Virus record (IMG/VR): IMGVR_UViG_2645728091_000014
Span: 1-11,289 of that record
Direction: 5' to 3' (one strand)
Length of the DNA: 11,289 nt
From: a virus
Lineage: Duplodnaviria; Heunggongvirae; Uroviricota; Caudoviricetes
The translations under genes were made by a program, and so were the position numbers. The notes under the pieces are model-generated. The model ran no database searches, was not told the DNA's origin, and saw only the letters and a list, made by a program, of their open reading frames with translations. Within the stretch, counting starts at the first letter, position 1; every line of letters begins with the position of its first letter. This document shows positions 1 to 11,289 of this stretch, piece after piece.

Positions 1-249
1 ATGCGCACACAGGTTGTATTGCAAAAATGGGGTAATAGCATTGCCCTTCGACTAACGGGAAACCTTAAAACCGTTCCGGGTTTTTCAGTGGGTGATATCG
101 TCAACGTTGAAATTAGTGAAAAGGGGCTTTTTGTAGAAAAGCCTGCACGCCGTCGCCTGAGTGAAGCCGAATTACTCGCCGGGATAACGCCAGTTACAGC
201 GCACGCGGACGAAATTGCCCCCCCATTCAATGAGGAGGTTGATTACTGA
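1..249 (+). CDS. MazE/PemI-family antitoxin (SpoVT/AbrB-type)
   Basis: 82-aa ORF starting with ATG at base 1. N-terminal K-W-G-N-S-x-A-x-R motif is typical of MazE/PemI/ChpS antitoxins. Stop TGA (247-249) overlaps the ATG of the downstream toxin gene (TGATG). Confidence 0.8.
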   Translation: MRTQVVLQKWGNSIALRLTGNLKTVPGFSVGDIVNVEISEKGLFVEKPARRRLSEAELLAGITPVTAHADEIAPPFNEEVDY

Positions 250-593
250 TGTTTGTACCTAAGCGTGGTGATATTTGCTGGCTGGATTTTGAGCCGCAGA
301 AAGGAAAAGAGATCGGAAAGTATCGCCCGGCACTCATACTGTCCCATGAGCAATATAACCGACTCACCGGGCTTGTCATATGCTGCCCCATAAGTACGAG
401 CATACGAAATGCTCCCACAGAAGTTCCGGTAACAAATCTGGACGCCCCCAACGTTGTAGCAACCACACTCATTCAAACCCTTGACTGGCGTCAGCGGAAA
501 GCGCGCTTAATCACAGAGGCAGAAGATGGGGTATTTAATGATGTGCTTGAAAGAGTCATTACCCTGATTGGCGGAGAGCATCTGCTTAAGTAA
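249..593 (+). CDS. MazF/PemK-family mRNA interferase toxin
   Basis: 114-aa ORF with the family-typical N-terminus (P-x-R-G-D-I-x-W-L-D-F-E-P-x-x-G-x-E-x-G-x-x-R-P-A-L-I-L-S), comparable to MazF/ChpBK/PemK. Start overlaps the antitoxin stop. Confidence 0.85.
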   Translation: MFVPKRGDICWLDFEPQKGKEIGKYRPALILSHEQYNRLTGLVICCPISTSIRNAPTEVPVTNLDAPNVVATTLIQTLDWRQRKARLITEAEDGVFNDVLERVITLIGGEHLLK

Positions 594-597
594 AAGG

Positions 598-615
598 AGG
601 GCTGAGAAGCCCTCA
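598..615. terminator. GC hairpin between convergent genes (possible bidirectional terminator)
   Basis: GAGGGCT (598-604), loop GAGA, AGCCCTC (609-615), lying between the toxin stop and the stop of the minus-strand 423-aa ORF. The T-tract is weak on both strands. Confidence 0.35.
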
Positions 616-636
616 ACGTTACCGGAAATTTCCTTG

Positions 637-1908
637 CTATTCTTTCCAGTCAATCCCATCCAGTAAGCACCCTGCTTCATATTGCCCCACCACCCAGTCA
701 AGGTTACAGGACTCATAGAACGCGAGGCGATTATACTGAGGCTCGTTTTTTACCAGGCCACGAACGGAACCACGCTGCCAGTACAGACACAGATTGGCAA
801 GAGGTGTGATCAATACAGCATTGTCCGGGAAAAATGGAACGGTCACAGCCGGGAGATTCCCCAGAACAGGATTTTTAATGATTTCCTCGTTAAGCAAAAT
901 TTCCTGATTCATCTGCGATGGATCAAGACGGTTTATCAAAGGCCATTGCTTACGGACCAGCGTATTGTGACTGCATACGGCCACAATGCCTTCCTGCCAC
1001 TGTTCATCAATCATGGATTGCCAGGCATCCAGAACGAGCGCATCTATCGTATGGTGTGTACCGCGTGTATTACTTTTCGGTGATGAAACAGAAAGGCCGC
1101 TGATAACCCTTCCCGCCGCTTCATTTCGAAACTTCTGCAACCAGCCCACGCCGCAATCATCACGCCCCGGATATGTTCCGGGATCTGATGTATCGGCATA
1201 GTGCGTACCGTTAAAACCAATCTGAATCAAATCCAGCCATTTCCGGCGTTCAAAAGCAGCCCGTGCGCTTCCTTCAAGACCGTTTGCGGATGCGTGAGCA
1301 TCAACATTGTCGTAGTTCAGCGCAAAATCAAAATTAACCTGCTCGCAGCGGTAGCCCCTTGAAACCAGTGAATGCGCCTGTAGTGGCGAACGGCGCGCGT
1401 GAGACGGTGATGTGCGTGCCAGCGGCCCCGAAGCGTCTACCAGCACAACCCGACCTGATATATCCGTAACAGGCACGGGAGTTATTTCAGCAAGGAAATT
1501 TGCCTGCCATCCACTGGCAAGCGTTGCACTCTGGCGGGGAACAGGCTCAACTTCTGATGAATAGCGCGCAGTGTCATCGGAAAAGTGCAAGTCCTTCGGA
1601 TGCTTTCCGGTTATCGACTCGATAGCGAGATTGAAAGCTATCTGAGACTGTTGATTTCGTTGTGACACAACAGAACCAGCAGTGCGATTATAACGCTCAA
1701 TGCCGTTGTTATTGCCCTCACCGTTTGCAGAATGCAGGGTGTGAAGCTCGAGTTCGCGCTCCAGTTTTTGATATTCATTGTCCAGGGCGCGACGGGTTTC
1801 ATCGCTTATGCCTGCTGTATTTGCTTTCAGGCGATTCCGGGACATTGATCCCCTGAGTCGGCTCACTATATCAGCGACGTGCAAATGTGGAATGTTCAGA
1901 CCGCCCAT
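637..1908 (-). CDS. hypothetical protein ORF2 (423 aa), function unknown
   Basis: Long minus-strand ORF. Preferred start is the ATG at 1908-1906, which overlaps the TAA stop of ORF1 (minus-strand TAATG) and is preceded by GGGGGTGG. The track's 470-aa version starts at 2049 and would overlap ORF1 by 141 nt. No Walker A, CxxC or other motif recognised by eye. Confidence 0.7.
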   Translation of the reverse strand: MGGLNIPHLHVADIVSRLRGSMSRNRLKANTAGISDETRRALDNEYQKLERELELHTLHSANGEGNNNGIERYNRTAGSVVSQRNQQSQIAFNLAIESITGKHPKDLHFSDDTARYSSEVEPVPRQSATLASGWQANFLAEITPVPVTDISGRVVLVDASGPLARTSPSHARRSPLQAHSLVSRGYRCEQVNFDFALNYDNVDAHASANGLEGSARAAFERRKWLDLIQIGFNGTHYADTSDPGTYPGRDDCGVGWLQKFRNEAAGRVISGLSVSSPKSNTRGTHHTIDALVLDAWQSMIDEQWQEGIVAVCSHNTLVRKQWPLINRLDPSQMNQEILLNEEIIKNPVLGNLPAVTVPFFPDNAVLITPLANLCLYWQRGSVRGLVKNEPQYNRLAFYESCNLDWVVGQYEAGCLLDGIDWKE

Positions 1909-2618
1909 TACTGCCACCCCCGGCAGAGTTCTCTGCCCTCCGCAAGGTCGCGCATTTTTTCTGAATTCTGTCGCGCTGCGCTCCATTGTACAGGTGAAGG
2001 GGCGCTCCTGATTGCGCAGCTTACTGAATCCGGGAGTTTCTCCGGGCAATAACGCAGCGGGCTGGAGGTGTCGCTTTCGGTATCGTTAATCCGGCCGCGA
2101 ATCATCCCGACACTTTCAGCAGTATCTGCCGCTTTCAGTGTTTCGCATATTTTCTTTTCTGCGTTATACAGCGGCTGGCCAAGCAGCTCACATAAACCAC
2201 GAATCAATAACAGAACAGGGGTCAGCTCGTTAATCAGTTCGGGAAGTGCTTTTGCAAATATCTCTGCCCGCAACTTATTATCAATACTTTCGTAAGCACA
2301 ACCAGCCTCTGCCGCGTTATAACGACACTCCAGTAGCCTGATGCGCGCCTCATCATGCAGCACCCGCAGACGCTCAAGATTTTCTCGCGCCACACCCGCC
2401 TGAATGGATAATTTCGCGGAGGCTTCCGTTTTTACTCCCAGCGCAGACAGGATTGAGTTCTGCCAGTCACGATCGAGAGACTCCAGTTCCCCTTTCGTCT
2501 GTTCGATAGTCGCTTCCAGATTGGTGACTAATGATTCCTGTTCACTGAGTTTTGCCCTGGCAGTATCAAACCGTGCTTTACATACCTGATGTTCGGCGCT
2601 TGCCTGAGTTATATCCAT
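1908..2618 (-). CDS. hypothetical protein ORF1 (236 aa), predicted helical; possibly Psu-like
   Basis: ATG at 2618-2616 preceded by AGGAG with a 6-nt spacer. N-terminal half is rich in heptad-like charged/Leu segments. Weak resemblance to my recollection of P4 Psu (N-terminal FDT, central A-L-x-P-E-L...E-L-T), unverified. Confidence 0.7.
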   Translation of the reverse strand: MDITQASAEHQVCKARFDTARAKLSEQESLVTNLEATIEQTKGELESLDRDWQNSILSALGVKTEASAKLSIQAGVARENLERLRVLHDEARIRLLECRYNAAEAGCAYESIDNKLRAEIFAKALPELINELTPVLLLIRGLCELLGQPLYNAEKKICETLKAADTAESVGMIRGRINDTESDTSSPLRYCPEKLPDSVSCAIRSAPSPVQWSAARQNSEKMRDLAEGRELCRGWQ

Positions 2619-2627
2619 TATTTGCTC

Positions 2628-2728
2628 CTGTAATACATTTTTTACTTACGCCGATTTTTTCCATATTGCGTAATACATTCCAGCCGATTTTGTTCTCGTA
2701 ATACGCTCACAATACTGTTGTATTACGC
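2628..2728. promoter_or_regulatory. divergent control region with four GTAWTAC heptamers
   Basis: GTAATAC at 2630-2636, 2670-2676 and 2698-2704; inverted GTATTAC at 2720-2726. Lies between the starts of ORF1 (minus) and the RHH gene (plus). The ORF1 ribosome-binding site abuts the first copy. Confidence 0.45.
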
Positions 2729-2782
2729 TTTCTTATATCGCGGGTGTTAAATCCCGGCATAAACAATCAGGGAGGCAACACG

Positions 2783-3016
2783 ATGAAAAAACAAAAGAAA
2801 ATGCGATGCGTATTACGCTGTATTCGTATCCCGCACGAAATCGACCATAAAATAAATCAGATGTGTGAGGACAGAGAGATGAACTACTCCCAGTGCGTCA
2901 GAATGTTTATCAGTCAGGGAATTAAGGCCGGGGAAACGCAGGAAGAAGACCGTGACGGGCGCAATGTGGCGGGGGATGTGTGGGCCTGGGCAAATGACCA
3001 GAACCACACGACGTAA
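2783..3016 (+). CDS. putative ribbon-helix-helix (Arc/CopG-like) DNA-binding protein
   Basis: 77-aa ORF from ATG 2783 preceded by GGGAGG with a 7-nt spacer (the track's 2744 start is a GTG without an RBS). Residues VLRCIRIP then two helices (EIDHKINQMCEDREM, NYSQCVRMFISQG) fit the beta-strand/helix/helix pattern of Arc/MetJ/CopG repressors. Confidence 0.55.
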   Translation: MKKQKKMRCVLRCIRIPHEIDHKINQMCEDREMNYSQCVRMFISQGIKAGETQEEDRDGRNVAGDVWAWANDQNHTT

Positions 3017-3066
3017 TACAGCAATAACGCAGCCGGTCACACTCGCTGGCTGTGTTATACAAATCA

Positions 3067-3249
3067 CTATGAAGTTTTCGCCTTCCTGCGCTTAGTGATG
3101 CGTACAAACGACTCAAGCGTACAAAAACAAGCCCCACACTCAATATTATTGCACTGGTAATACGTTCTGTAGATGTTTTGTTCGTGTTCTTCCAACGAAC
3201 GACCACGGGTGCGGGCTGAAGCGCCACAGGCCGGGCAAGGGAAAGACAT
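3067..3249 (-). CDS. ogr: Ogr/Delta-family zinc-finger late-gene transcription activator
   Basis: 60-aa ORF with C-P-x-C...A-R-T-R...Y-x-C-x-N-x-x-C...F-x-T-x-E-S, matching the Cys4 pattern and spacing of P2 Ogr / P4 Delta. AGGAG 6 nt upstream of the ATG. Confidence 0.8.
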   Translation of the reverse strand: MSFPCPACGASARTRGRSLEEHEQNIYRTYYQCNNIECGACFCTLESFVRITKRRKAKTS

Positions 3250-3283
3250 ATCACGCTCCTCTTACTGGTGTGAAATTTAACCT

Positions 3284-3289
3284 ATTATA
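3284..3289 (-). promoter_or_regulatory. candidate -10 hexamer (TATAAT on minus strand) for ogr
   Basis: Perfect TATAAT on the minus strand about 35 nt upstream of the ogr ATG. No convincing -35 at 17 bp, so activator dependence is possible. Confidence 0.3.
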
Positions 3290-3610
3290 TCTTCCGCCGC
3301 CTCCTCTGGCTGTATCAAATAAACCCGCAGCAGTCGCCGCGTATTACGCACGGGCGCACCGTTCTCATGCTCACTCGTCACATTCCCCGTATCAGTTCTC
3401 TCTTGCCGTAAGAACGGCTCTGGCTGGCGATAAAACTAACCCGGTCGGGCATTCCCGCAGCCTTTAGCGAAAATGTCATTTACCCCCTGAAACGCGTGCT
3501 GTTCCCCCGTCACCTGCGCGCGAAAAACTCACCGTTTTTTGTGCACGCACGAAATCGCCCTCCGGGCGCGCCAGTACTGGGCCGGATGGGCAAAAAGTTA
3601 CTCTAAAAAA

Positions 3611-3637
3611 TTGTGCAAATTTGTGCACTTTTGTGCA
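3611..3637. repeat. three direct TTGTGCA repeats at exact 10-bp phasing
   Basis: TTGTGCA at 3611-3617, 3621-3627 and 3631-3637; a fourth copy at 3539-3545. Two copies extend to the palindrome GTGCAC. Confidence 0.6.
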
Positions 3638-3862
3638 GATGAACAATAGCGTCAAAAAGAGTGCTTTTGAGAGATTTTTTATGGCAACTGCGCCGCGTGT
3701 ATTACGTTTTTTACCATCCCCGCCGTGCATGTACATACTTCATTTTCTGCCAAACAACAGGGCAACTCCCCGTGACTGACAGCCCCAAAAAATCAATGAT
3801 TAATGTTGCATTTTTGTTAGAGATTAGACCAGTTGTTTTGGGGCTCTGCCTCATAATCCGGT

Positions 3863-4179
3863 GGGGGGTGCGCAAAGCGGTTACAACGGTTACAACAGTT
3901 AAAAACACAACTTAACAGTATGATTTTAATGGATATTGTTTGTAACCGCTTTGCGGTTACACTGCGGTTACAACGGTTACAGGTTTCAAAAAGCACTTTA
4001 TTATCAATCAATTAAAAACTTAACCTGTAACCGCCTGTAACCTAACAAAACGGTTACATGTAACCGCGTTGTAACCGCTTTTGTAACTCATCCGACCAGT
4101 TATAATATATTGATATATAATACAAAAATAAGTAATTCTAAATTTGTAACCGTTGTAACCGCTTTGCGCATCCCCCCCC
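3863..4179. repeat. iteron array bounded by a perfect 27-bp inverted repeat; putative ori/crr-like or att-arm region
   Basis: 3869-3895 (TGCGCAAAGCGGTTACAACGGTTACAA) is the exact reverse complement of 4144-4170, extended by G6 (3863-3868) / C8 (4172-4179). At least 13 GGTTAC/GTAACC hexamers lie between, as direct repeats (3878-3895, 3953-3981, 4024-4043) and palindromes (3941-3961, 4051-4066). An AT-rich stretch sits at 4100-4143 and an IHF-like WATCAANNNNTTR match at 4002-4014. Confidence 0.6.
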
Positions 4180-4366
4180 AAACTTTAGCGCGACCCTTTA
4201 AAATGTTAATTAAACTCACTTACTCTGTCTCATTCTCATTAACTCTCTGTGATTAAAATGTATCTCGTCATTATTTGACTCTTTCTGATAATCAGGGGGC
4301 AAAAAATTGATGGCGGCACCACTGCAATATGGCCACCATTGCATTGCCGTTACCGTTGGTTCTGGC

Positions 4367-4397
4367 CAACAAAAAAGGTCAGCGGGAAACTGACCTC
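4367..4397 (-). terminator. rho-independent terminator downstream of int
   Basis: Stem GGTCAG (4377-4382) / CTGACC (4390-4395) with 7-nt loop. On the minus strand it is followed by TTTTTGTT, 30-60 nt after the int stop. It is also T-rich on the plus side. Confidence 0.6.
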
Positions 4398-4425
4398 TTT
4401 TGCTGTGAATGTAGCGTTCTGCGGG

Positions 4426-5430
4426 TTACTCTGCTGGCTCTTTTTCTTCGATGATCACTATGTTGGCTACCGGGTTAAATCTCATGGCATCTGCCAGATA
4501 ATCCGGTGCAAAATGTGCGTATGCCATAGTCTGCTGAATTGTCGCATGCCCAAGGATTTTTTGTAGCGCAAGAATGTTGCCACCGTTCATCACAAAGTGA
4601 CTGGCGAATGTATGCCGCAATACATGCGCAGCCTGCCCCCTCGGTAAATCGGGTTTTATTTTTTTTAATGCCCGGCAAAACTCTCTATACTTCACATCAA
4701 ACAGTCGCCCGGTTTCTTTTGTTTTTACGGCATCGCATATTTCCTGCGACACAGGCACCGTTCTTTTTCTACCGTTTTTGGTTTCCAGAAACGTTATTCT
4801 ATTATGAACTATTTGCTCTCCATGCAATCTGCTGGCCTCACTCCAGCGGGCTCCGGTACATAGACACAAGAGCGCAACCCTTCGTTGATCTCCATTCAGC
4901 CCGTCAAGCAACAATGTGACCTCGTTTTTTGATAAAAAGGCCATTTCCCGCTGCTTTACATAAAGAACAGGAATACCACGAACCGGATGCTCTGCATCCC
5001 ACAAACCGATCTTTTTCAGGGCTGTAAACATCCCCGATAATCTGTTCATGTATCTGTTTGCTGAGGACGGCTTTAATCCTTCCGCAATTTTCTGCGATCG
5101 CCATGCAATGATTTTTAATTTGTCGAGTTCTACCGCAAACATGTCAGCTCCAAGCTCATTAATAATTTTGCCAAGCTGCTGTTTATCCGTGTTTGCCTTT
5201 CGCCTGTGCTGACCGTGATAAACCCACCACAATTCCAGTAAATCGCTAAGCGTTCTCCGGTCGCGATAGCCCTGTATAAACTCGCGCTTTTCGGCGTTCG
5301 CTATGATGTACCGTTCAGTTGCTGTAGCTATCGATTTTTTGTCAAATATTCTTCTGATGCGCTTCCCTTTACGTCCGCATGGCCTGATATCGAGCAGCCA
5401 CCGCCCATCATGCATCTTTCTGATCGGCAT
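4426..5430 (-). CDS. int: tyrosine recombinase / phage integrase (P2-type)
   Basis: C-terminal H-x-L-R-H-T...L-G-H...Y catalytic motifs. N-terminus (DGRWLLDIRPCGRKGKRIRRIFDKKS) resembles P2/186-type integrases. Preferred ATG at 5430 lies 2 nt after the primase stop with AAGGAGG upstream; the alternative ATG at 5466 adds 12 aa. Confidence 0.9.
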   Translation of the reverse strand: MPIRKMHDGRWLLDIRPCGRKGKRIRRIFDKKSIATATERYIIANAEKREFIQGYRDRRTLSDLLELWWVYHGQHRRKANTDKQQLGKIINELGADMFAVELDKLKIIAWRSQKIAEGLKPSSANRYMNRLSGMFTALKKIGLWDAEHPVRGIPVLYVKQREMAFLSKNEVTLLLDGLNGDQRRVALLCLCTGARWSEASRLHGEQIVHNRITFLETKNGRKRTVPVSQEICDAVKTKETGRLFDVKYREFCRALKKIKPDLPRGQAAHVLRHTFASHFVMNGGNILALQKILGHATIQQTMAYAHFAPDYLADAMRFNPVANIVIIEEKEPAE

Positions 5431-5432
5431 GT

Positions 5433-8102
5433 TTAACGCCCCTCCTTGTAACTGAATATCCGGCATTTCAGTACTTCCGGCTCTCTGGCCTCGGCGACCC
5501 CTCTTCCGGCGTTTGCCTGTCTGGAGACCTCACTACGAATGGTTTTGCGGCCTGTCAAAGGTCGGGAACGTCCTGCTCCGAGCAACTCAATCATTTCGCG
5601 GTCAGTGCGGATCTCCACGCGGTGAATAGCGGCAGCCTGTGCCAGTTGCGGAATACTGATAGCAATCCCCTCGCGGCATCCCTTGCCGTAGTGGTTTACA
5701 CCGTATTTTGTTATGCCGTCCAGGAAGTCGAACGCCTCCCAGAACTCCATCACTTCCGGTAAATCAGCCGCCGCCGCTTTAACCTGCGCTGTTGCCATTT
5801 GTTCCAGTTCCAGACATGTGGCATCAAGCCATTCATCTGGGATATCAATAACGCATTTCAGCGCCCTGACCAGCGCGATAAGTTGTGCGTGATTTTTGGC
5901 GATGCGGGGATGGCGAATATTTTCGCATCCGCAAAGGCGTTCCGTTTCAACTGGAGATACTTCCAGGAACGTTTGCATAATCGCCCGTTCCTGACTTGCC
6001 GCCCGGTGAATAAACCCAGATACCTTCTCGACGGGGTAAAGTTCCAGCCGTCTCGCCGCCAGGCGGGTATCAGGTGAATGGCGTTTTTTATCGGTGTATA
6101 TGCGTATCAGGCGCTCAATAATTGCCGGAGAGGCGTTTACCCGCGCATTCTGCGCAATCACGATAGCGCCCTTAAAATCCGGATCATAGGTGTTGTTATT
6201 GTTGGCCTTAACACCACGAACGCCGATACCACCGCCGTTATAGAGACTTTTCAGGTTATCGAAGTCAAACGCACCTCTTTTTTGCGCATTGTCTCCCCGG
6301 TCCGCTTCAATCAGAACAACAGGTAATCCGGCGACCTGTCCAAAGGTGCGCTTCCAGCCCGCCTCTGATCCTTTGGTTGGATCAACGCCTTCATAGTTGT
6401 CACGACCGCACAGCCGCCAGCAAAAATCAATCAGTGTTGATTTACCCGTTCCGGGCTCCCCGGTGACTTCAAGGAAGGGGAAGGATTCTTCTTTATCCCG
6501 GATTTGTTCGCTGAACAGGGAGCCCAACCAGAAAGCCAGGGTAATAATTCCCTTTTCACCAAAAGCCAGCCAGAGATCTTCCACCCAGGACGCTGTAAAT
6601 TCATCCGGTTTTTTGTAGTTAATCTGTAATGTGGGTTTTTCGCTTAATGGTTTTGCGTTTATGCCATCAATTTCAAAATAATCCTCATCATTGATTTCAT
6701 AAGTTTTACCCTTATAAACGGCAATATCATTAAACAGCCATGCCCCAATTCCCTTGTTGTATCCGATAAAATCCTGACCAATAACCTCTTTTATTGCGGG
6801 AAGGTCATTTTTTATTAATGCGTCAAGCTGCGTAGTCGTTCCGGTATAAATACCGCCTTTTGCCACGTGCAGCAGGCGTTTTTTAAATTCAGATGAGGAT
6901 GTTAATTGTCCTGATGTAAAGGTGTTTTTCACCGTAGCACCATCCGGGAATGTAACGCGGAAGTAATACCATGCTTCATCCGTGTCATTGTTTCGAATGT
7001 AATAAAGCGGCACTGGGTTACAGTTTGCGATTTCTTTTACAGCACCGGATTCCTTAAGTGCAATTTTGCGCGCTTCGTCTTCGTCAACATTTCGCTCATT
7101 AATGACACGCTCAACAGCCTTCATATGGCGCTCAATGTCCAGCTTGAACCAGAAAACACGGTTATCAAAAGTAAAATGAAATTCCTTCCGCTCACGAAAG
7201 GAAAACATTATTAGTGCCTTATCTCTTGGAGATTTCGCCAGCAATAAATCACCGTAATAACGGTATCTTTTCACATCATGGCCACGCAGCTTTCCGGCGA
7301 TGTGTAAATCATTCCAGTCGCGTTTATTGCTGTTTTTACCCGGTAACGCCGCCGCCGTTCTCCAGCCGTCTTCGGCGCTGCGTTCTGCATGTTTTTTCGC
7401 GTAACGTTCACCCGCACGCCCGTTATCCAGGGCCCACACAATAACCGGACGGGGATTATCTCCGCACAGCTTCGCCAGCTCTTCCAGCGCCTTATCAGGG
7501 TAGTTCACGGCAGACATGACAGAAACGGCCGCAATGCCATTCTGGTTAAGGCTGATGGCATCAAAGATGCCCTCACAAATCCAGATTTCTTTGGCCTTGC
7601 TTAAATCTGCTCCCGGATAAGCCCACCACAACCCCTTGTAGCTGCCGGAAAAATTCGCCTTGCGCGCGAAGCGTCCCGGTCGGTCTATGATGCGCTCCCA
7701 CCACACGCCGTCAGCCAGCGTAAAACGCACAGTAGCGGCCTGTTCGCCGTTTTCCTTGTCCTGGTATCGCTCCTGAGTAAATGCGCCCTTCAGTGGCCCC
7801 ACAGCAATATTGCGCGCTTCCTGAAGATAAGCTGCCGCCGCTGCATATGGCTCATCTTTCGTGCTGATATAACGATCTGACCATGATGAAAACACATCCG
7901 GGTAAAGTTCTTTGGTCAGCAGGTCTATACCGCATTTATTTTCGCGCCCACAGTGTACGATGTACGGCCTTTCAAGGCTGGTAAACAACTCTTTCTTTCC
8001 ACATTGCGGACAAACACCATACCGGAGGTAGTTATTTTCTTCTTTGAAGTTGTAATCACGGATAAGACGGTTAATAATCTCTTTTCTGATGTCAGATTTC
8101 AT
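5433..8102 (-). CDS. alpha-like DNA primase-helicase (zinc-binding N-terminus, TOPRIM primase, SF3/D5-type helicase)
   Basis: N-terminal C-P-x-C...H-C...C zinc motif, TOPRIM-like E-G-I-F-D-A and L-D-N-G-R-A-G, and Walker A G-E-P-G-T-G-K-S-T. Preferred ATG at 8102 with GGAG 8 nt upstream; the track start at 8126 is a GTG inside a hairpin. Confidence 0.9.
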   Translation of the reverse strand: MKSDIRKEIINRLIRDYNFKEENNYLRYGVCPQCGKKELFTSLERPYIVHCGRENKCGIDLLTKELYPDVFSSWSDRYISTKDEPYAAAAAYLQEARNIAVGPLKGAFTQERYQDKENGEQAATVRFTLADGVWWERIIDRPGRFARKANFSGSYKGLWWAYPGADLSKAKEIWICEGIFDAISLNQNGIAAVSVMSAVNYPDKALEELAKLCGDNPRPVIVWALDNGRAGERYAKKHAERSAEDGWRTAAALPGKNSNKRDWNDLHIAGKLRGHDVKRYRYYGDLLLAKSPRDKALIMFSFRERKEFHFTFDNRVFWFKLDIERHMKAVERVINERNVDEDEARKIALKESGAVKEIANCNPVPLYYIRNNDTDEAWYYFRVTFPDGATVKNTFTSGQLTSSSEFKKRLLHVAKGGIYTGTTTQLDALIKNDLPAIKEVIGQDFIGYNKGIGAWLFNDIAVYKGKTYEINDEDYFEIDGINAKPLSEKPTLQINYKKPDEFTASWVEDLWLAFGEKGIITLAFWLGSLFSEQIRDKEESFPFLEVTGEPGTGKSTLIDFCWRLCGRDNYEGVDPTKGSEAGWKRTFGQVAGLPVVLIEADRGDNAQKRGAFDFDNLKSLYNGGGIGVRGVKANNNNTYDPDFKGAIVIAQNARVNASPAIIERLIRIYTDKKRHSPDTRLAARRLELYPVEKVSGFIHRAASQERAIMQTFLEVSPVETERLCGCENIRHPRIAKNHAQLIALVRALKCVIDIPDEWLDATCLELEQMATAQVKAAAADLPEVMEFWEAFDFLDGITKYGVNHYGKGCREGIAISIPQLAQAAAIHRVEIRTDREMIELLGAGRSRPLTGRKTIRSEVSRQANAGRGVAEAREPEVLKCRIFSYKEGR

Positions 8103-8115
8103 ATATAAAACTCCA

Positions 8116-8145
8116 CCCCACTGCACCTTTTGCAGTGGGGTTTTT
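8116..8145 (+). terminator. perfect 10-bp GC hairpin plus T-run in the primase 5' leader
   Basis: CCCCACTGCA (8116-8125), loop CCTTT, TGCAGTGGGG (8131-8140), then TTTTT (8141-8145) on the plus strand. On the minus strand the stem is followed by UGGAGUUUUAUAUAUG, which contains the primase RBS and start. Confidence 0.45.
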
Positions 8146-8150
8146 ATTAA

Positions 8151-8450
8151 TTACTCGTTACTTATTGCTTTGGCAATCCCGGCGGTTTCGGCACTATGCC
8201 ATGAAAAAATTCCGCCAGAAGTATGCATTCCTGACTTAATCGCTCGTAATTCCCGATAAAGAATGTTAGTTAATGATTCCATTTCATTAATTTGCACTGG
8301 CATTCTCTCACTGGTATTAATTTCACCTGTCAATGCTGAAAGGAGCGCAATAACATTTATTACATCTTCAAGATTCTCAATGGAATCTTCCGTGAAAAAA
8401 CCAGCGTATTCTTTTTTGTATATATTGCGGATATTCTGATTTTCAGACAT
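8151..8450 (-). CDS. hypothetical protein (99 aa), AT-rich
   Basis: ATG at 8450 preceded by GGGGAG with a 5-nt spacer. Visibly more AT-rich than the flanking primase and small-ORF block. Confidence 0.5.
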   Translation of the reverse strand: MSENQNIRNIYKKEYAGFFTEDSIENLEDVINVIALLSALTGEINTSERMPVQINEMESLTNILYRELRAIKSGMHTSGGIFSWHSAETAGIAKAISNE

Positions 8451-8517
8451 AAAAACTCCCCGACCCGTTAAGATCGAAATATAAATTTAATTCAGTTATC
8501 AGTTGGTAATTCGGGAA

Positions 8518-8736
8518 TCAGGCGGAAAGCTGCGTCACCTTCAACGCTTTGAAATGTGTCATTCCCAGCTCTTCCAGCCCTTCGGCTGCGCGGCGTATGG
8601 CTTCGCCCGGTCCCGTTCCGTATACCGTTGCATGTGCATGTTTGGTTAACCCACGTTTATTAACGGCATAACCCAACACAAAGAAACGTTTTTCACCACT
8701 GCCATTATTTTTACGGGATATTGAACGGCTTTTCAT
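8518..8736 (-). CDS. hypothetical small protein (72 aa)
   Basis: ATG 8736-8734 overlaps the TGA stop of the upstream ORF (ATGA), indicating translational coupling. Confidence 0.5.
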   Translation of the reverse strand: MKSRSISRKNNGSGEKRFFVLGYAVNKRGLTKHAHATVYGTGPGEAIRRAAEGLEELGMTHFKALKVTQLSA

Positions 8737-8921
8737 TTCTTCACCTTTAGCACTGATGCTGTGAGTTCTTCTTCTGGCAATTGATATTTCGGCGCAATTT
8801 CTTCCGTATACCTGATAGCATCCCTTGCCGCTTTTCCTTTTGATTTATATTTACGTATCGTGTAGAAGTTTTCTTCCTCTCCTGTTACCACATTACGCAA
8901 TTTAATATGAATCTCGTACAT
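8733..8921 (-). CDS. hypothetical small protein (62 aa)
   Basis: Preferred ATG at 8921 is preceded by GGAGGGG and sits 2 nt after the TAA stop of the upstream ORF. The track version starts 10 codons earlier at 8951. Confidence 0.5.
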   Translation of the reverse strand: MYEIHIKLRNVVTGEEENFYTIRKYKSKGKAARDAIRYTEEIAPKYQLPEEELTASVLKVKK

Positions 8922-8923
8922 CG

Positions 8924-9106
8924 TTACCCCTCCATGATTTTTACTGCGCATTTGTGGGTTAATCGCCCCTGTTTGTCATTGCGGGAATATGCCATACGAC
9001 AGGCATCACGCCATGCATCGTCATAAGTCGGATATTCCCAGGAATGAATCATCTGGCGAACGTCGCCGTTCTGGTAGTTAATCAGGGTGATAAGGAGCTT
9101 AAACAT
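8924..9106 (-). CDS. hypothetical small protein (60 aa)
   Basis: Preferred ATG at 9106 is preceded by GGGAGG about 7 nt upstream. The track's 86-aa version (start 9184) has no RBS. Confidence 0.5.
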   Translation of the reverse strand: MFKLLITLINYQNGDVRQMIHSWEYPTYDDAWRDACRMAYSRNDKQGRLTHKCAVKIMEG

Positions 9107-9272
9107 GGCACGCCTCCCGGACACGGATACGGGCAACAAAGACCAGACGGGATGCCGGAAGCATGGCGCGCGCTTCGCGCTCACTGGCAGCGGTAACGGT
9201 ATGAAGGCGAATATTTTTACCGTGGCACTGCATAAAGCGCCAGATAAAATCAGGGCGTGTTGATATAGCCAT
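9099..9272 (-). CDS. hypothetical small protein (57 aa), possibly Icd-like
   Basis: ATG at 9272 preceded by AAGGAG. The track's 175-aa extension to 9626 is low-complexity and lacks an RBS. The E-R-E-A-R ... L-V-F-V-A-R-I motif pattern resembles my recollection of Icd-like proteins in P4-like prophages, unverified. Confidence 0.4.
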   Translation of the reverse strand: MAISTRPDFIWRFMQCHGKNIRLHTVTAASEREARAMLPASRLVFVARIRVREACHV

Positions 9273-9629
9273 TTTGGCGGCTCCTTGATTAAGTTTACGG
9301 AGTCTCGCCAGCACGCTGCTAAACATGGTGGCGGGACGTAACAGGGTTAGCAGACTGGCAATCAAGGAACCAGCGAGCGCAAAGGCTCCCCCATTACGCC
9401 CCGCCATAATACGGGGTAGGGTGGAATTACGGGCACAAAAAAACCGCATTACGGAAATATAGCGGCTACCCGCTTGATTGTTCAGGCTGCTAAACCCGGC
9501 ACCCGCTTTATGAGGTGCGGGCAAACGATACGCCATGACAAAAAAGCGAGTCAAGCAATATTGCAAATTATTTTTGCTCACTTGCGCTGAGTGATTGATT
9601 TTAAAGAGTAAAAAAGCCATAATCATTTC

Positions 9630-9720
9630 TGCCTATTACTTCTTATTGCTGACTTTAGGTGCATTAAATGCACATCCTTGACTGGTTGGCTCGCTAGCTT
9701 CAGCGAGCTTCTTTTTTTTT
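9630..9720 (+). ncRNA. candidate ~90-nt plus-strand small RNA, antisense to the minus-strand operon leader
   Basis: Plus-strand TTGATT (9595-9600), 17-bp spacer, CATAAT (9618-9623), then a GTGCATT/AATGCAC hairpin (9659-9673) and a terminator hairpin with T-run (9689-9720). No plus-strand ORF of note. Confidence 0.25.
9689..9720 (+). terminator. intrinsic terminator oriented on the plus strand
   Basis: GCTCGCT (9689-9695), loop AGCTTC, AGCGAGC (9702-9708), then TTCTTTTTTTTT (9709-9720). On the minus strand the A-run precedes the stem, so it is not a minus-strand terminator. Confidence 0.5.
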
Positions 9721-9820
9721 GCTCTGCTGCCAGTACTTGGCCTCCTTCCCCCACATGTAGCAATACGTTCAGATCAGTAAGTTTTGCCACCCAGTGATGG
9801 ACGCAATAAACCACCAACGC

Positions 9821-10141
9821 TTATTCAACTCTGGCGCTACCGGATTCTCTCTCCCTTTTCTTTTTGGCGTTTTCGTATGGGTTATTCACTTTGGCAATAA
9901 CTGGCGGATTACGTAGCCACCACAAAACATCACTTAACAGCCAGGTACATGAGCAACGCCCCAAAGAGTGACGAGGAGGAAAAGCACCGATCTTCTCCAG
10001 TTCCCAGCGGCGGGAGCGTGAAAGCGTGGTCATTTTTTTACACTTCTCTTCCCTGATGCGTTCTTCGCAGTCAAAGCCATACTCGGCGAGTATGGTGCGG
10101 CGCTGTTCTGGAGTTGGTGGAATGAATGCGGATTGAGTCAT
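9821..10141 (-). CDS. alpA: AlpA/Vis-family phage transcriptional regulator (excisionase-like HTH)
   Basis: 106-aa ORF. The segment L-S-R-S-R-R-W-E-L-E-K-I-G-A-F-P-P-R ... W-L-L-S-D-V-L-W-W-L matches the AlpA HTH pattern. Confidence 0.8.
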   Translation of the reverse strand: MTQSAFIPPTPEQRRTILAEYGFDCEERIREEKCKKMTTLSRSRRWELEKIGAFPPRHSLGRCSCTWLLSDVLWWLRNPPVIAKVNNPYENAKKKRERESGSARVE

Positions 10142-10202
10142 ATTTCCCCCTATGTTTCTGAACTTTCGGGGGAGATTTTTGTTTTACGGAGTTTTGAAAG
10201 CA

Positions 10203-10239
10203 AGTATTAAAGGTCTTATTAAGATGCTTGCTGGTCTTA
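10203..10239. repeat. two 15-bp direct repeats 21 bp apart in the alpA upstream region
   Basis: GGTCTTATTAAGATG (10203-10217) and GGTCTTACTGAGATG (10224-10238), 13/15 identical, overlapping the 3' end of the 350-aa ORF. Confidence 0.35.
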
Positions 10240-11289
10240 CTGAGATGATGCTTTAATCCATCTTGATATAGTACTTTTATCAAAGCGCATATTGAGTCCT
10301 GCCTCTCTTGCTTCCGCGGTCAATATATCAGCAAGTTTTACCGGATTGTTTTCGAGTTCTTTATAATGAATAACAAGCATCGCACGAAAAAAATCCTTCA
10401 TTGTTTTAGATAATCGTTCTATATTGTTTTTATTGGTGCATATGTCTTTCTCTCCATCCTCAGAACTTAATATATTGTTACCCGCACACAAATATAAAGT
10501 ATCTGCCAATGGATTAACATAATCTTTTCTTAACTCGCTATTGGAGTTTGTAGCATTTTGTATTTTTAAAAAATCATTCTTTAAGATATATAAATCACCA
10601 ATATCAAAAGAAACATCCTCAGTAACAATTAGTCCTATATGTATATCAACGTCAGAAGCAATTATAATATTGCTATTAATTATTCGGTTGGCTTTAAACT
10701 TCTTATTAAAATCATAGTTGGCAAAAAAACTTCCCCCCAAAGCGAAAATGCCGCCTATTTCAACAAAATACTTATGGTATTTTTCTTGAATACCTTTAAA
10801 TACTGGTGGCACAACTGCCACAGCTCTTTCATCCGTTGCTATTCGATATACACTATATATGTGATAATTTTCCCCATAATATACCCCCCTGTTATAATAA
10901 TTTAACAAAGCAAATGCAGTATCAATTGCTATGTCACCAAATTTGGGCGTTACATATGAATGACTTAGAGATTCGCACATTGAATCAAATATAATTCTCG
11001 ACTTGGTTTTTATATAATTAAAACCATGGTGTTCTGCCGCCCTTTCTGAAATGGCATCAAGATCAGATAACCGTGATTTACACGGTTCTGAATCCATAAA
11101 CTTACGCAGACAATCGAAATTAACCACATCTTTTTCATCTGGGATATTTAATACTCCATATGCAGATTCAATTTTTATACAAATACGAATGCAGCCTGTC
11201 ACAGCCCAATGAATAAGATCGTCAATATCGCAGTCTAATAACTTTGCCGCGCGCTCAATAGGATAGTAATCTCTTAGTGGTAACGTCAT
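10237..11289 (-). CDS. hypothetical protein (350 aa), AT-rich, HTH-like segments at both termini
   Basis: ATG is the last three bases of the window, so the true start may lie upstream. N-terminal Y-P-I-E-R-A-A-K-L-L-D-C-D-I-D-D-L-I-H-W and C-terminal A-D-I-L-T-A-E-A-R-E-A-G-L-N-M-R-F-D-K-S-T-I-S-R-W-I-K look like helix-turn-helix elements. A weak G-G-S ... S-D-V-D-I stretch was noted. Confidence 0.65.
   Translation of the reverse strand: MTLPLRDYYPIERAAKLLDCDIDDLIHWAVTGCIRICIKIESAYGVLNIPDEKDVVNFDCLRKFMDSEPCKSRLSDLDAISERAAEHHGFNYIKTKSRIIFDSMCESLSHSYVTPKFGDIAIDTAFALLNYYNRGVYYGENYHIYSVYRIATDERAVAVVPPVFKGIQEKYHKYFVEIGGIFALGGSFFANYDFNKKFKANRIINSNIIIASDVDIHIGLIVTEDVSFDIGDLYILKNDFLKIQNATNSNSELRKDYVNPLADTLYLCAGNNILSSEDGEKDICTNKNNIERLSKTMKDFFRAMLVIHYKELENNPVKLADILTAEAREAGLNMRFDKSTISRWIKASSQ

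Follow-up and report, generated by a model that had tools for sequence, protein, structure and literature searches.

The DNA analysed here (the window) spans positions 1 to 11,289 of IMG/VR virus record IMGVR_UViG_2645728091_000014, which is assigned to the Caudoviricetes. On its gene and RNA content, described below, it is a P4-like phage satellite in the Escherichia coli chromosome, from a branch without recognisable sid, psu, epsilon or cnr. The region under study lies directly in front of the primase gene and holds a small gene of 99 amino acids (aa), open reading frame (ORF) 99, and a strong hairpin. The minus strand carries every gene from 4426 to 11289. ORF99 (8151–8450, minus strand) runs from the ATG at 8450 to the TAA at 8151 and is preceded by the Shine–Dalgarno (SD) sequence GGGGAG at 8456–8461; the protein is acidic (isoelectric point, pI, 4.85). 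Upstream of it is an intergenic region of 67 nucleotides (nt; 8451–8517, minus strand) with a small hairpin (8458–8479) that abuts this SD. A consensus scan, which a weak or activator-dependent promoter could escape, found no sigma-70-like site on the minus strand of 8451–8517. Downstream, 48 nt separate the ORF99 stop from the primase start. The primase initiation region (8100–8114, minus strand) consists of GGAG (8114–8111), a U-rich spacer and the ATG (8102–8100). The gene itself (5433–8102, minus strand) is a Toprim primase-helicase-like replication gene that matches Toprim_2 and Toprim_3 in Pfam and the DNA primase family phrog_1139 (6e-297). The Prokaryotic Genome Annotation Pipeline (PGAP) gives an 889-aa Toprim protein from the same start in an identical E. 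coli record, and the start MK(S/H/P).. is common to relatives.

The hairpin (8115–8141) is located between the ORF99 stop and the primase SD, 14–38 nt upstream of the primase ATG, and touches the SD. Its arms, CCCCACTGCA at 8116–8125 and TGCAGTGGGG at 8131–8140, form 10 perfect pairs around a 5-nt loop, with an extra pair between A8115 and T8141. On both strands, the stem has a folding energy of −24 kcal/mol (z = −4.4 for the minus strand and −5.4 for the plus strand, with none of 200 shuffles as good), and in a lenient scan of 4000–11289 it was the top terminator-like site on both strands. The T-run TTTTTATTA (8141–8149, plus strand) follows the stem directly, as a TTTTT core at 8141–8145 and then ATTAAT, and is antisense to the genes; on the sense strand, the A-rich AAUAAAAA precedes the stem. 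Polarity was measured with a decaying T-tail score for each strand, which in the window is 3.96 for the antisense (plus) strand and 0.49 for the sense (minus) strand. In the sense RNA, the SD comes between the stem and the U residues, which makes the stem a weak terminator at best. A plus-strand RNA ending at the T-run would, by this geometry, cover both the SD and the AUG of the primase. In predicted ensembles of the sense RNA, the SD region of the primase is unpaired with a probability of 0.26–0.68; as the SD and AUG are partly unpaired, direct occlusion of the primase start would be modest. The initial annotation of this DNA, made from the sequence alone, had described a strong, perfect 10-bp GC hairpin at this spacing from the ATG, abutting GGAG and with its T-run on the opposite strand, behind a gene richer in AT than the primase, and in all of these points it was correct. 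The roles that it proposed for the hairpin, to gate primase expression or to stop antisense read-through, are plausible.

The GC content of ORF99 is 37.0% (32% at third codon positions, GC3), compared to 49.3% for the primase (GC3 50%) and 46.5% for the window. Low GC is not confined to ORF99, as ORF62 (38%) and a 350-aa ORF (33.6%) are similar. Within the ORF99 family, GC is 33–39%, with a Serratia copy at 42.5%; AT-richness is thus common to nearly all members, and the trait is old. Homologues of ORF99 form 51 protein clusters in E. coli and Salmonella (55–99% identity), and their indels all have lengths in multiples of three. Based on these clusters, the indel lengths and a ratio of nonsynonymous to synonymous diversity (pN/pS) of 0.51, ORF99 is a real coding gene. 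The family has just 14 representatives among 1.84 billion proteins. ORF99 has no match in Pfam, PHROG, NCBIfam or the PDB, and no family member has a match in Pfam. Conserved motifs are found at the N-terminus (YxGFFTE..LxDVIN) and at the C-terminus (SLxNILYREL..IKSGMHxSGGIFSW). The AlphaFold2 (AF2) model, with a predicted local distance difference test score (pLDDT) of 74, is a helical hairpin with helices at residues 21–42 and 54–73, and fold searches with this model returned generic helical matches only.

ORF99 is hypervariable. In an identity profile from an alignment of nine elements, mean pairwise nucleotide identity is 46–75% inside ORF99 compared to 91–97% in the flanks, with the minimum at 8324–8268. 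The 67-nt spacer keeps a mean pairwise identity of 94%, although the adjoining ORF99 alleles are only 36–60% identical, and the first 900 nt of the primase are at least 94.7% identical among close carrier genomes. The synonymous diversity (pS) is 0.53 in ORF99 and approximately 0.15 in ORF72 and the N-terminus of the primase. The nonsynonymous diversity (pN) of ORF99 is 0.27, and pN/pS rises from the overall 0.51 to 0.77 in codons 33–58; judged by the overall ratio, ORF99 is under purifying selection. The variable block (residues 33–58, with a 5-aa indel) is located between the conserved N- and C-terminal motifs. On the AF2 model, it forms the tip, from the last part of helix 1 through the loop into the first part of helix 2. 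The N-terminal, central and C-terminal types of the protein are found in differing combinations, that is, as mosaic alleles. The alleles are thus old and have been shuffled among otherwise near-identical satellites. The alignment points to the ORF99 segment as a recombining cassette, with the conserved spacer of 67 nt on its upstream side and the start of the primase on the other.

The position of ORF99 is stable. The region upstream of the primase was matched in 66 E. coli genomes and the N-terminal primase query in 71, with 67 of the 71 holding most of the query; searching genome contigs with the primase N-terminus led to a single locus. A gene of 99–101 aa occupies the ORF99 slot in every PGAP-annotated relative listed or fetched, and the slot is filled in all 30+ relatives fetched, none having an empty slot. 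Distant homologues with 33–41% identity are found directly upstream of the primase in two further loci (L008 and L009). There, orthologues of small ORFs 60, 62 and 72 precede the ORF99 homologue, and an orthologous second integrase follows the primase. The layout hairpin-GGGG-UUUUAUG seen before ORF99 also precedes these two homologues, with different stems. Wherever the context was recovered, the ORF99 family takes the last position or positions before the primase. The primase is of a different type (Zn-ribbon/DUF927) in L009 and L034. In E. coli KCJ3K291 (L006), the slot holds instead an 87-aa homologue of P4 epsilon that matches PF25738 ('Derepression') at 6e-20 (9e-51 for P4 epsilon itself), and the primase protein is 60% identical. 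Between L006 and L009, the small ORFs are 84–94% identical, but the slot gene and the primase differ. Epsilon genes are also located directly before the primase in L036–L040. In the Serratia loci L039 and L040 (1934–2574), an ORF99-family gene (94 aa) is followed by an epsilon homologue, the hairpin and the primase; this side-by-side order may be ancestral, with one gene or the other lost later.

Every locus examined has a GC-rich stem-loop that separates the last small gene from the primase, with at least five unrelated stem sequences. The 5' arm is CCCCACTGCA in the window and its close relatives (type A), CCCCCCCTGTA in L003 (type B), AGCGCCG in L006, L008, L009, L012 and L039 (type C), GCCGCCA in L034 (type D) and GCGCCGC in L036 and L042 (type E). 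The type A stem shows compensatory double changes at two pairs, and 93% of cells are paired. The hairpin is kept where an epsilon homologue fills the slot (L006, L036 and L039) and where the primase is of a different type (L009, L034 and L036), and it is therefore not part of ORF99. On this conservation and covariation, the hairpin is an independent element that is selected as a structure. The T-tail scores of types A and C are 2.9–4.5 for the antisense strand and 0.15–0.5 for the sense strand, and those of type B are 1.1 and 0.15. The asymmetry persists in L009 and L012, where the SD is located 25 nt from the stem.

We interpret ORF99, with moderate confidence, as a resident, hypervariable early gene and the hairpin as an independent, conserved boundary stem-loop in front of the replication module. 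The locus would then have ordinary satellite operon architecture, and the comparison with relatives does not support a recent insertion of ORF99. The data show the reality, synteny and hypervariability of the gene and the conservation, covariation and U-tract polarity of the hairpin; the functions proposed for both are inferred. The region would belong to a P4-like satellite's early operon, which is under immunity control. Its ORF99 alleles, which are very old and mosaic and differ mostly at the tip of the predicted helical hairpin, would owe their specificity to that tip, which would track a variable helper-phage or host protein; in sister elements, the same slot is taken by the helper-derepression protein epsilon of P4. 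With low confidence, we suggest that ORF99 is a partner-specific binding protein for a variable helper or host factor. The hairpin would mark the start of the replication module (primase and second integrase). On the sense mRNA, having no adjacent U-tract, it would be a leaky terminator at best or a stabiliser of RNA 3' or 5' ends, and in this role would let the small early genes be expressed differently from the primase and integrase. On the antisense strand, it has the form of a canonical intrinsic terminator and would efficiently stop transcripts that leave the 5' end of the primase before they enter the early/immunity region.

Several observations weigh against this interpretation. The high pS of ORF99 reflects old alleles and recombination and is no proof of positive selection. 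ORF99 was tried as a member of the epsilon family and as a relative of Cnr (DUF5375), and both were rejected, with hhalign probabilities of 0.17% (and no Pfam match) and 0.1%, respectively; P4 ORF106 (Cnr), for its part, matches PF17345 at 3e-63. In Serratia L039 and L040, ORF99 and epsilon are found together, which rules out strict mutual exclusivity of the two genes and means that they are not simple functional substitutes. The sense-strand tail UGGAGUUUU is poor as a U-tract (0.15–0.5), and a role as sense attenuator may therefore be negligible. Type E (L036 and L042) is the sole type with reversed polarity, scoring 0.12 on the antisense and 1.57 on the sense strand; a function common to all lineages must therefore act on the sense RNA, or else the function differs between lineages.

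The initial annotation had called the composition of ORF99 consistent with an inserted moron. In full, this reading makes ORF99 and the hairpin a recently acquired, autonomous AT-rich cassette with its own terminator, which we now regard as very unlikely. The composition (37% GC, GC3 32%) and the location between two intergenic regions (67 and 48 nt), the only ones of any size in the operon, would fit such a cassette, as would the differing slot content of some relatives (ORF99 family or epsilon) and the recombination of the ORF99 segment between conserved flanks. However, none of the relatives fetched has an empty slot, the homologues at 33–41% identity are syntenic and mostly as AT-rich, as are nearly all alleles, and no promoter-like site was found upstream of ORF99 by the consensus scan. 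Gene and hairpin do not form a unit either, since the hairpin stays in place with epsilon in the slot and with a changed primase type. The initial annotation had named conservation of ORF and hairpin in all relatives with uniform composition as an outcome that would refute its reading; ORF and hairpin are conserved in relatives, but the composition is not uniform. A second alternative for the gene is that ORF99, rather than being helper- or host-directed, is a replication regulator that binds the primase or initiator. Cnr, in work attributed to Terzano (1994) and Ziegelin (1997), is said to bind alpha and limit replication. ORF99 is similar in size to Cnr and is placed as cnr (ORF106) is in P4, where that gene immediately precedes alpha, and the presence of a cnr family member between epsilon and alpha in 90% of the P4-like elements (PMC8628076) can be counted in favour of such a role. 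This role is unlikely: apart from the missing homology to DUF5375/Cnr, the alleles of ORF99 vary widely while the primase N-terminus (at least 94.7% identical) does not, which makes it a poor fit. The same class of ORF99 occurs with both N-terminal variants of the primase, and primases of unrelated types also have a family member upstream.

For the hairpin, the alternatives concern the strand on which it acts. It is possible, if doubtful, that it ends a short (about 60 nt) cis-antisense RNA, a countertranscript that would start from a promoter in primase codons 9–18 (−10 at 8073–8078) and end at 8141–8149. Such an RNA would be fully complementary to the SD and AUG of the primase and would throttle its translation, setting copy number or timing, and in satellites that have no cnr it would stand in for the P4 regulator protein Cnr. 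The candidate promoter from the consensus scan, TTGTAA-17-AATAAT (8050–8078, plus strand), is located about 37 nt upstream of the hairpin. Four diverged lineages with a Toprim primase have a promoter-like site at this position (TGGTAA-17-TATGAT in L006, TTGTAA-17-TACAAT in L008 and TGGTAA-17-TATAAT in L039), and the unrelated primase of L009 has a TATAAT-containing site; in four of five lineages, the sites rank in the top 0–4% compared with the rest of the gene. The antisense U-tract is canonical in nearly all lineages (2.9–4.5 against 0.15–0.5), and L036, the only lineage without one, also has no antisense promoter-like site (score 2.6). In canonical P4-like elements with cnr, no hairpin separates cnr from alpha. 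The promoter, however, is not significant. Its score in the window was reached by 40 of 500 local shuffles and 104 of 500 synonymous resamplings, and in L006 by 185 and 241 of 500; L008 (10 and 12 of 500) is the only lineage at about 2%. The signal is largely due to composition and to Ile-Ile and Asp-Tyr codons, the −10 following almost automatically from Ile-Ile. The hairpin has no Rfam family match, even in a local relaxed search, and the putative RNA has a 5' stem that relatives do not share. Also doubtful is the proposal that the stem-loop acts on the sense transcript only, in processing and stability or in translation, with the antisense U-tract being a by-product of the A-rich tract. It could then combine an RNase E site in the A/U-rich tract with a protective 5' hairpin for the primase mRNA, or be a protective 3' hairpin for the upstream RNA. 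The sense-RNA hairpin is the sole feature common to all lineages, type E included, and the SD and AUG are not strongly occluded. A GC hairpin 5' of an SD with a U-rich spacer also precedes ORF99 (8458–8479) and its homologues in L008 and L009, and the same layout is found before the first replication-module gene of canonical P4-like elements. This proposal leaves unexplained that types A, C and D have the A-tract directly beside the stem, even with the SD 25 nt away (L009 and L012). A combined model, in which a cnr-less P4-like branch has replaced Cnr by a countertranscript RNA ending at the hairpin and in which ORF99 is a new allele-specific, helper- or host-targeting family in the epsilon slot, we put forward only tentatively.

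The assignment of the window to the P4-like satellites is based on the joint presence of RNA-type (C4/cI) immunity, AlpA, an Ogr/Delta regulator, a primase-type replication gene and an integrase. In E. coli 600468 (L001), an island between hpt and gcd is 100% identical to the window over the stretches compared. The P4-type RNA immunity region (9324–9531, minus strand) underlies an ORF annotated as 'Icd-like' and comprises the C4/cI antisense RNA (Rfam RF01695, 74.7 bits), an isrK-like RNA (52.1 bits) and a sub-threshold match to the a1/b1 target; the C4/cI and isrK-like matches are located at 9324–9518. Pfam and PHROG identify AlpA, the Toprim primase and a tyrosine recombinase coupled to the primase, and an Ogr/Delta zinc finger gene is also encoded. 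Among the ORFs of the window, there is no Pfam or PHROG match to sid, psu or epsilon; a homologue of the P2-family major capsid protein is encoded instead (637–1908, minus strand; PF05125 at 4e-73, phrog_70), and it is extended at the N-terminus by about 120 aa. The capsid gene of some relatives (L004, L016, L017 and L036) is located directly upstream of the Icd-like region, which suggests a rearranged or permuted order of modules in these loci.

The tyrosine recombinase coupled to the primase stop, which is the second integrase (4426–5430, minus strand), is kept in nearly all relatives in which the region was recovered. The island has another tyrosine recombinase, the arm-binding integrase (L001 18407–19606), at its gcd end and beyond the window. 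Just downstream of the second integrase, an iteron cluster at 3860–4180 (36–40% GC) contains at least 10 copies of CGGTTACAA(C) in direct and inverted orientation and is probably the replication origin of the satellite. The hairpin was considered for this role and ruled out, as the cluster lies elsewhere. For features below approximately 3250, PGAP coordinates in L001 differ from those of the window by 1 nt, and above 4426 they agree, which indicates a 1-bp indel, probably in the iteron region. The 350-aa ORF (10237–11289, minus strand; 33.6% GC, GC3 26%) is located between AlpA and the outer integrase and has no match in Pfam, PHROG or NCBIfam. Its slot differs in gene content from relative to relative, and the ORF may have an accessory or defence role. 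A toxin–antitoxin pair of the MazE/MazF type (1–593, plus strand) is found at the hpt-proximal end of the island.

An AT-rich small gene followed by a terminator carries the signature of a foreign insertion, and the present case indicates that this signature can belong to a long-resident, fast-evolving gene. Within the early operon of this satellite, ORF99 stands out as the single gene with old, recombining alleles, the pattern expected when a protein faces a variable helper-phage or host factor; such alleles make it a cheap experimental target for satellite–helper specificity. The comparison also reveals a conserved stem-loop where the replication module of P4-like satellites begins, and its antisense polarity raises the question of RNA-level control of satellite replication. 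Current understanding would change only if the antisense RNA or the specificity role of ORF99 were confirmed.

Comparison with P4, in which the gene order is ORF88(AlpA)-cI-epsilon-orf151-ORF106(cnr)-alpha, gives two counterparts for ORF99. Epsilon, like ORF99, is a small protein (about 90–100 aa) from the early operon of a P4-like satellite, and in L006 and L036 its homologue takes exactly the place that ORF99 has in the window, and a hairpin of the same kind and the primase come next. However, epsilon is basic (pI 9.25) whereas ORF99 is acidic (pI 4.85), and the two share no sequence or profile similarity. Cnr resembles ORF99 in its length of about 100 aa and in being encoded directly upstream of the primase gene, but cnr is coupled to alpha through a 14-nt spacer without a hairpin, and the proteins are not homologous.

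The hairpin shares with intrinsic terminators of the bidirectional type a GC-rich stem of 10–11 bp, a short loop, an A-tract on one side and a U-rich tract on the other. It differs in that the U-run on the gene strand is parted from the stem by the SD (UGGAG), leaving only the antisense orientation canonical, and in that it is located between co-directional genes within an operon rather than between convergent genes. Terminator T1, reportedly described by Lupski and Godson in 1984, lies between rpsU and dnaG in the macromolecular synthesis operon of E. coli and is likewise a terminator-type hairpin just upstream of a primase gene inside an operon. T1 is classically read as holding primase expression low relative to the upstream gene. 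It is a sense-strand terminator, whereas the sense U-tract of the present hairpin is poor. Plasmid rep genes are controlled by countertranscript RNAs such as CopA of R1 and the RNAI/ctRNAs of the pT181 and pLS1 families. With these systems, the locus has in common a canonical terminator antisense to the leader and ribosome-binding site of an initiator gene, a candidate promoter a few tens of nucleotides away and a predicted RNA of about 60 nt that spans the SD and AUG; it differs in that its promoter is without statistical support and its RNA is a prediction from sequence. An analogous layout is found in the canonical P4-like elements themselves (P4, L014 7305–7439; L043–L115), where a conserved 12-bp hairpin (GTGCGTAT..ATACGCAC) follows orf151. 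The early 1.3-kb transcript of P4 presumably ends near this hairpin. An A-rich tract precedes it, and a CAGGAG SD with an ORF follows, and then cnr and alpha, so that the hairpin stands at the start of the cnr–alpha replication module. In P4 this ORF is short; in the other elements its length is about 85 aa, and there it may be the '75-aa family' of PMC8628076.

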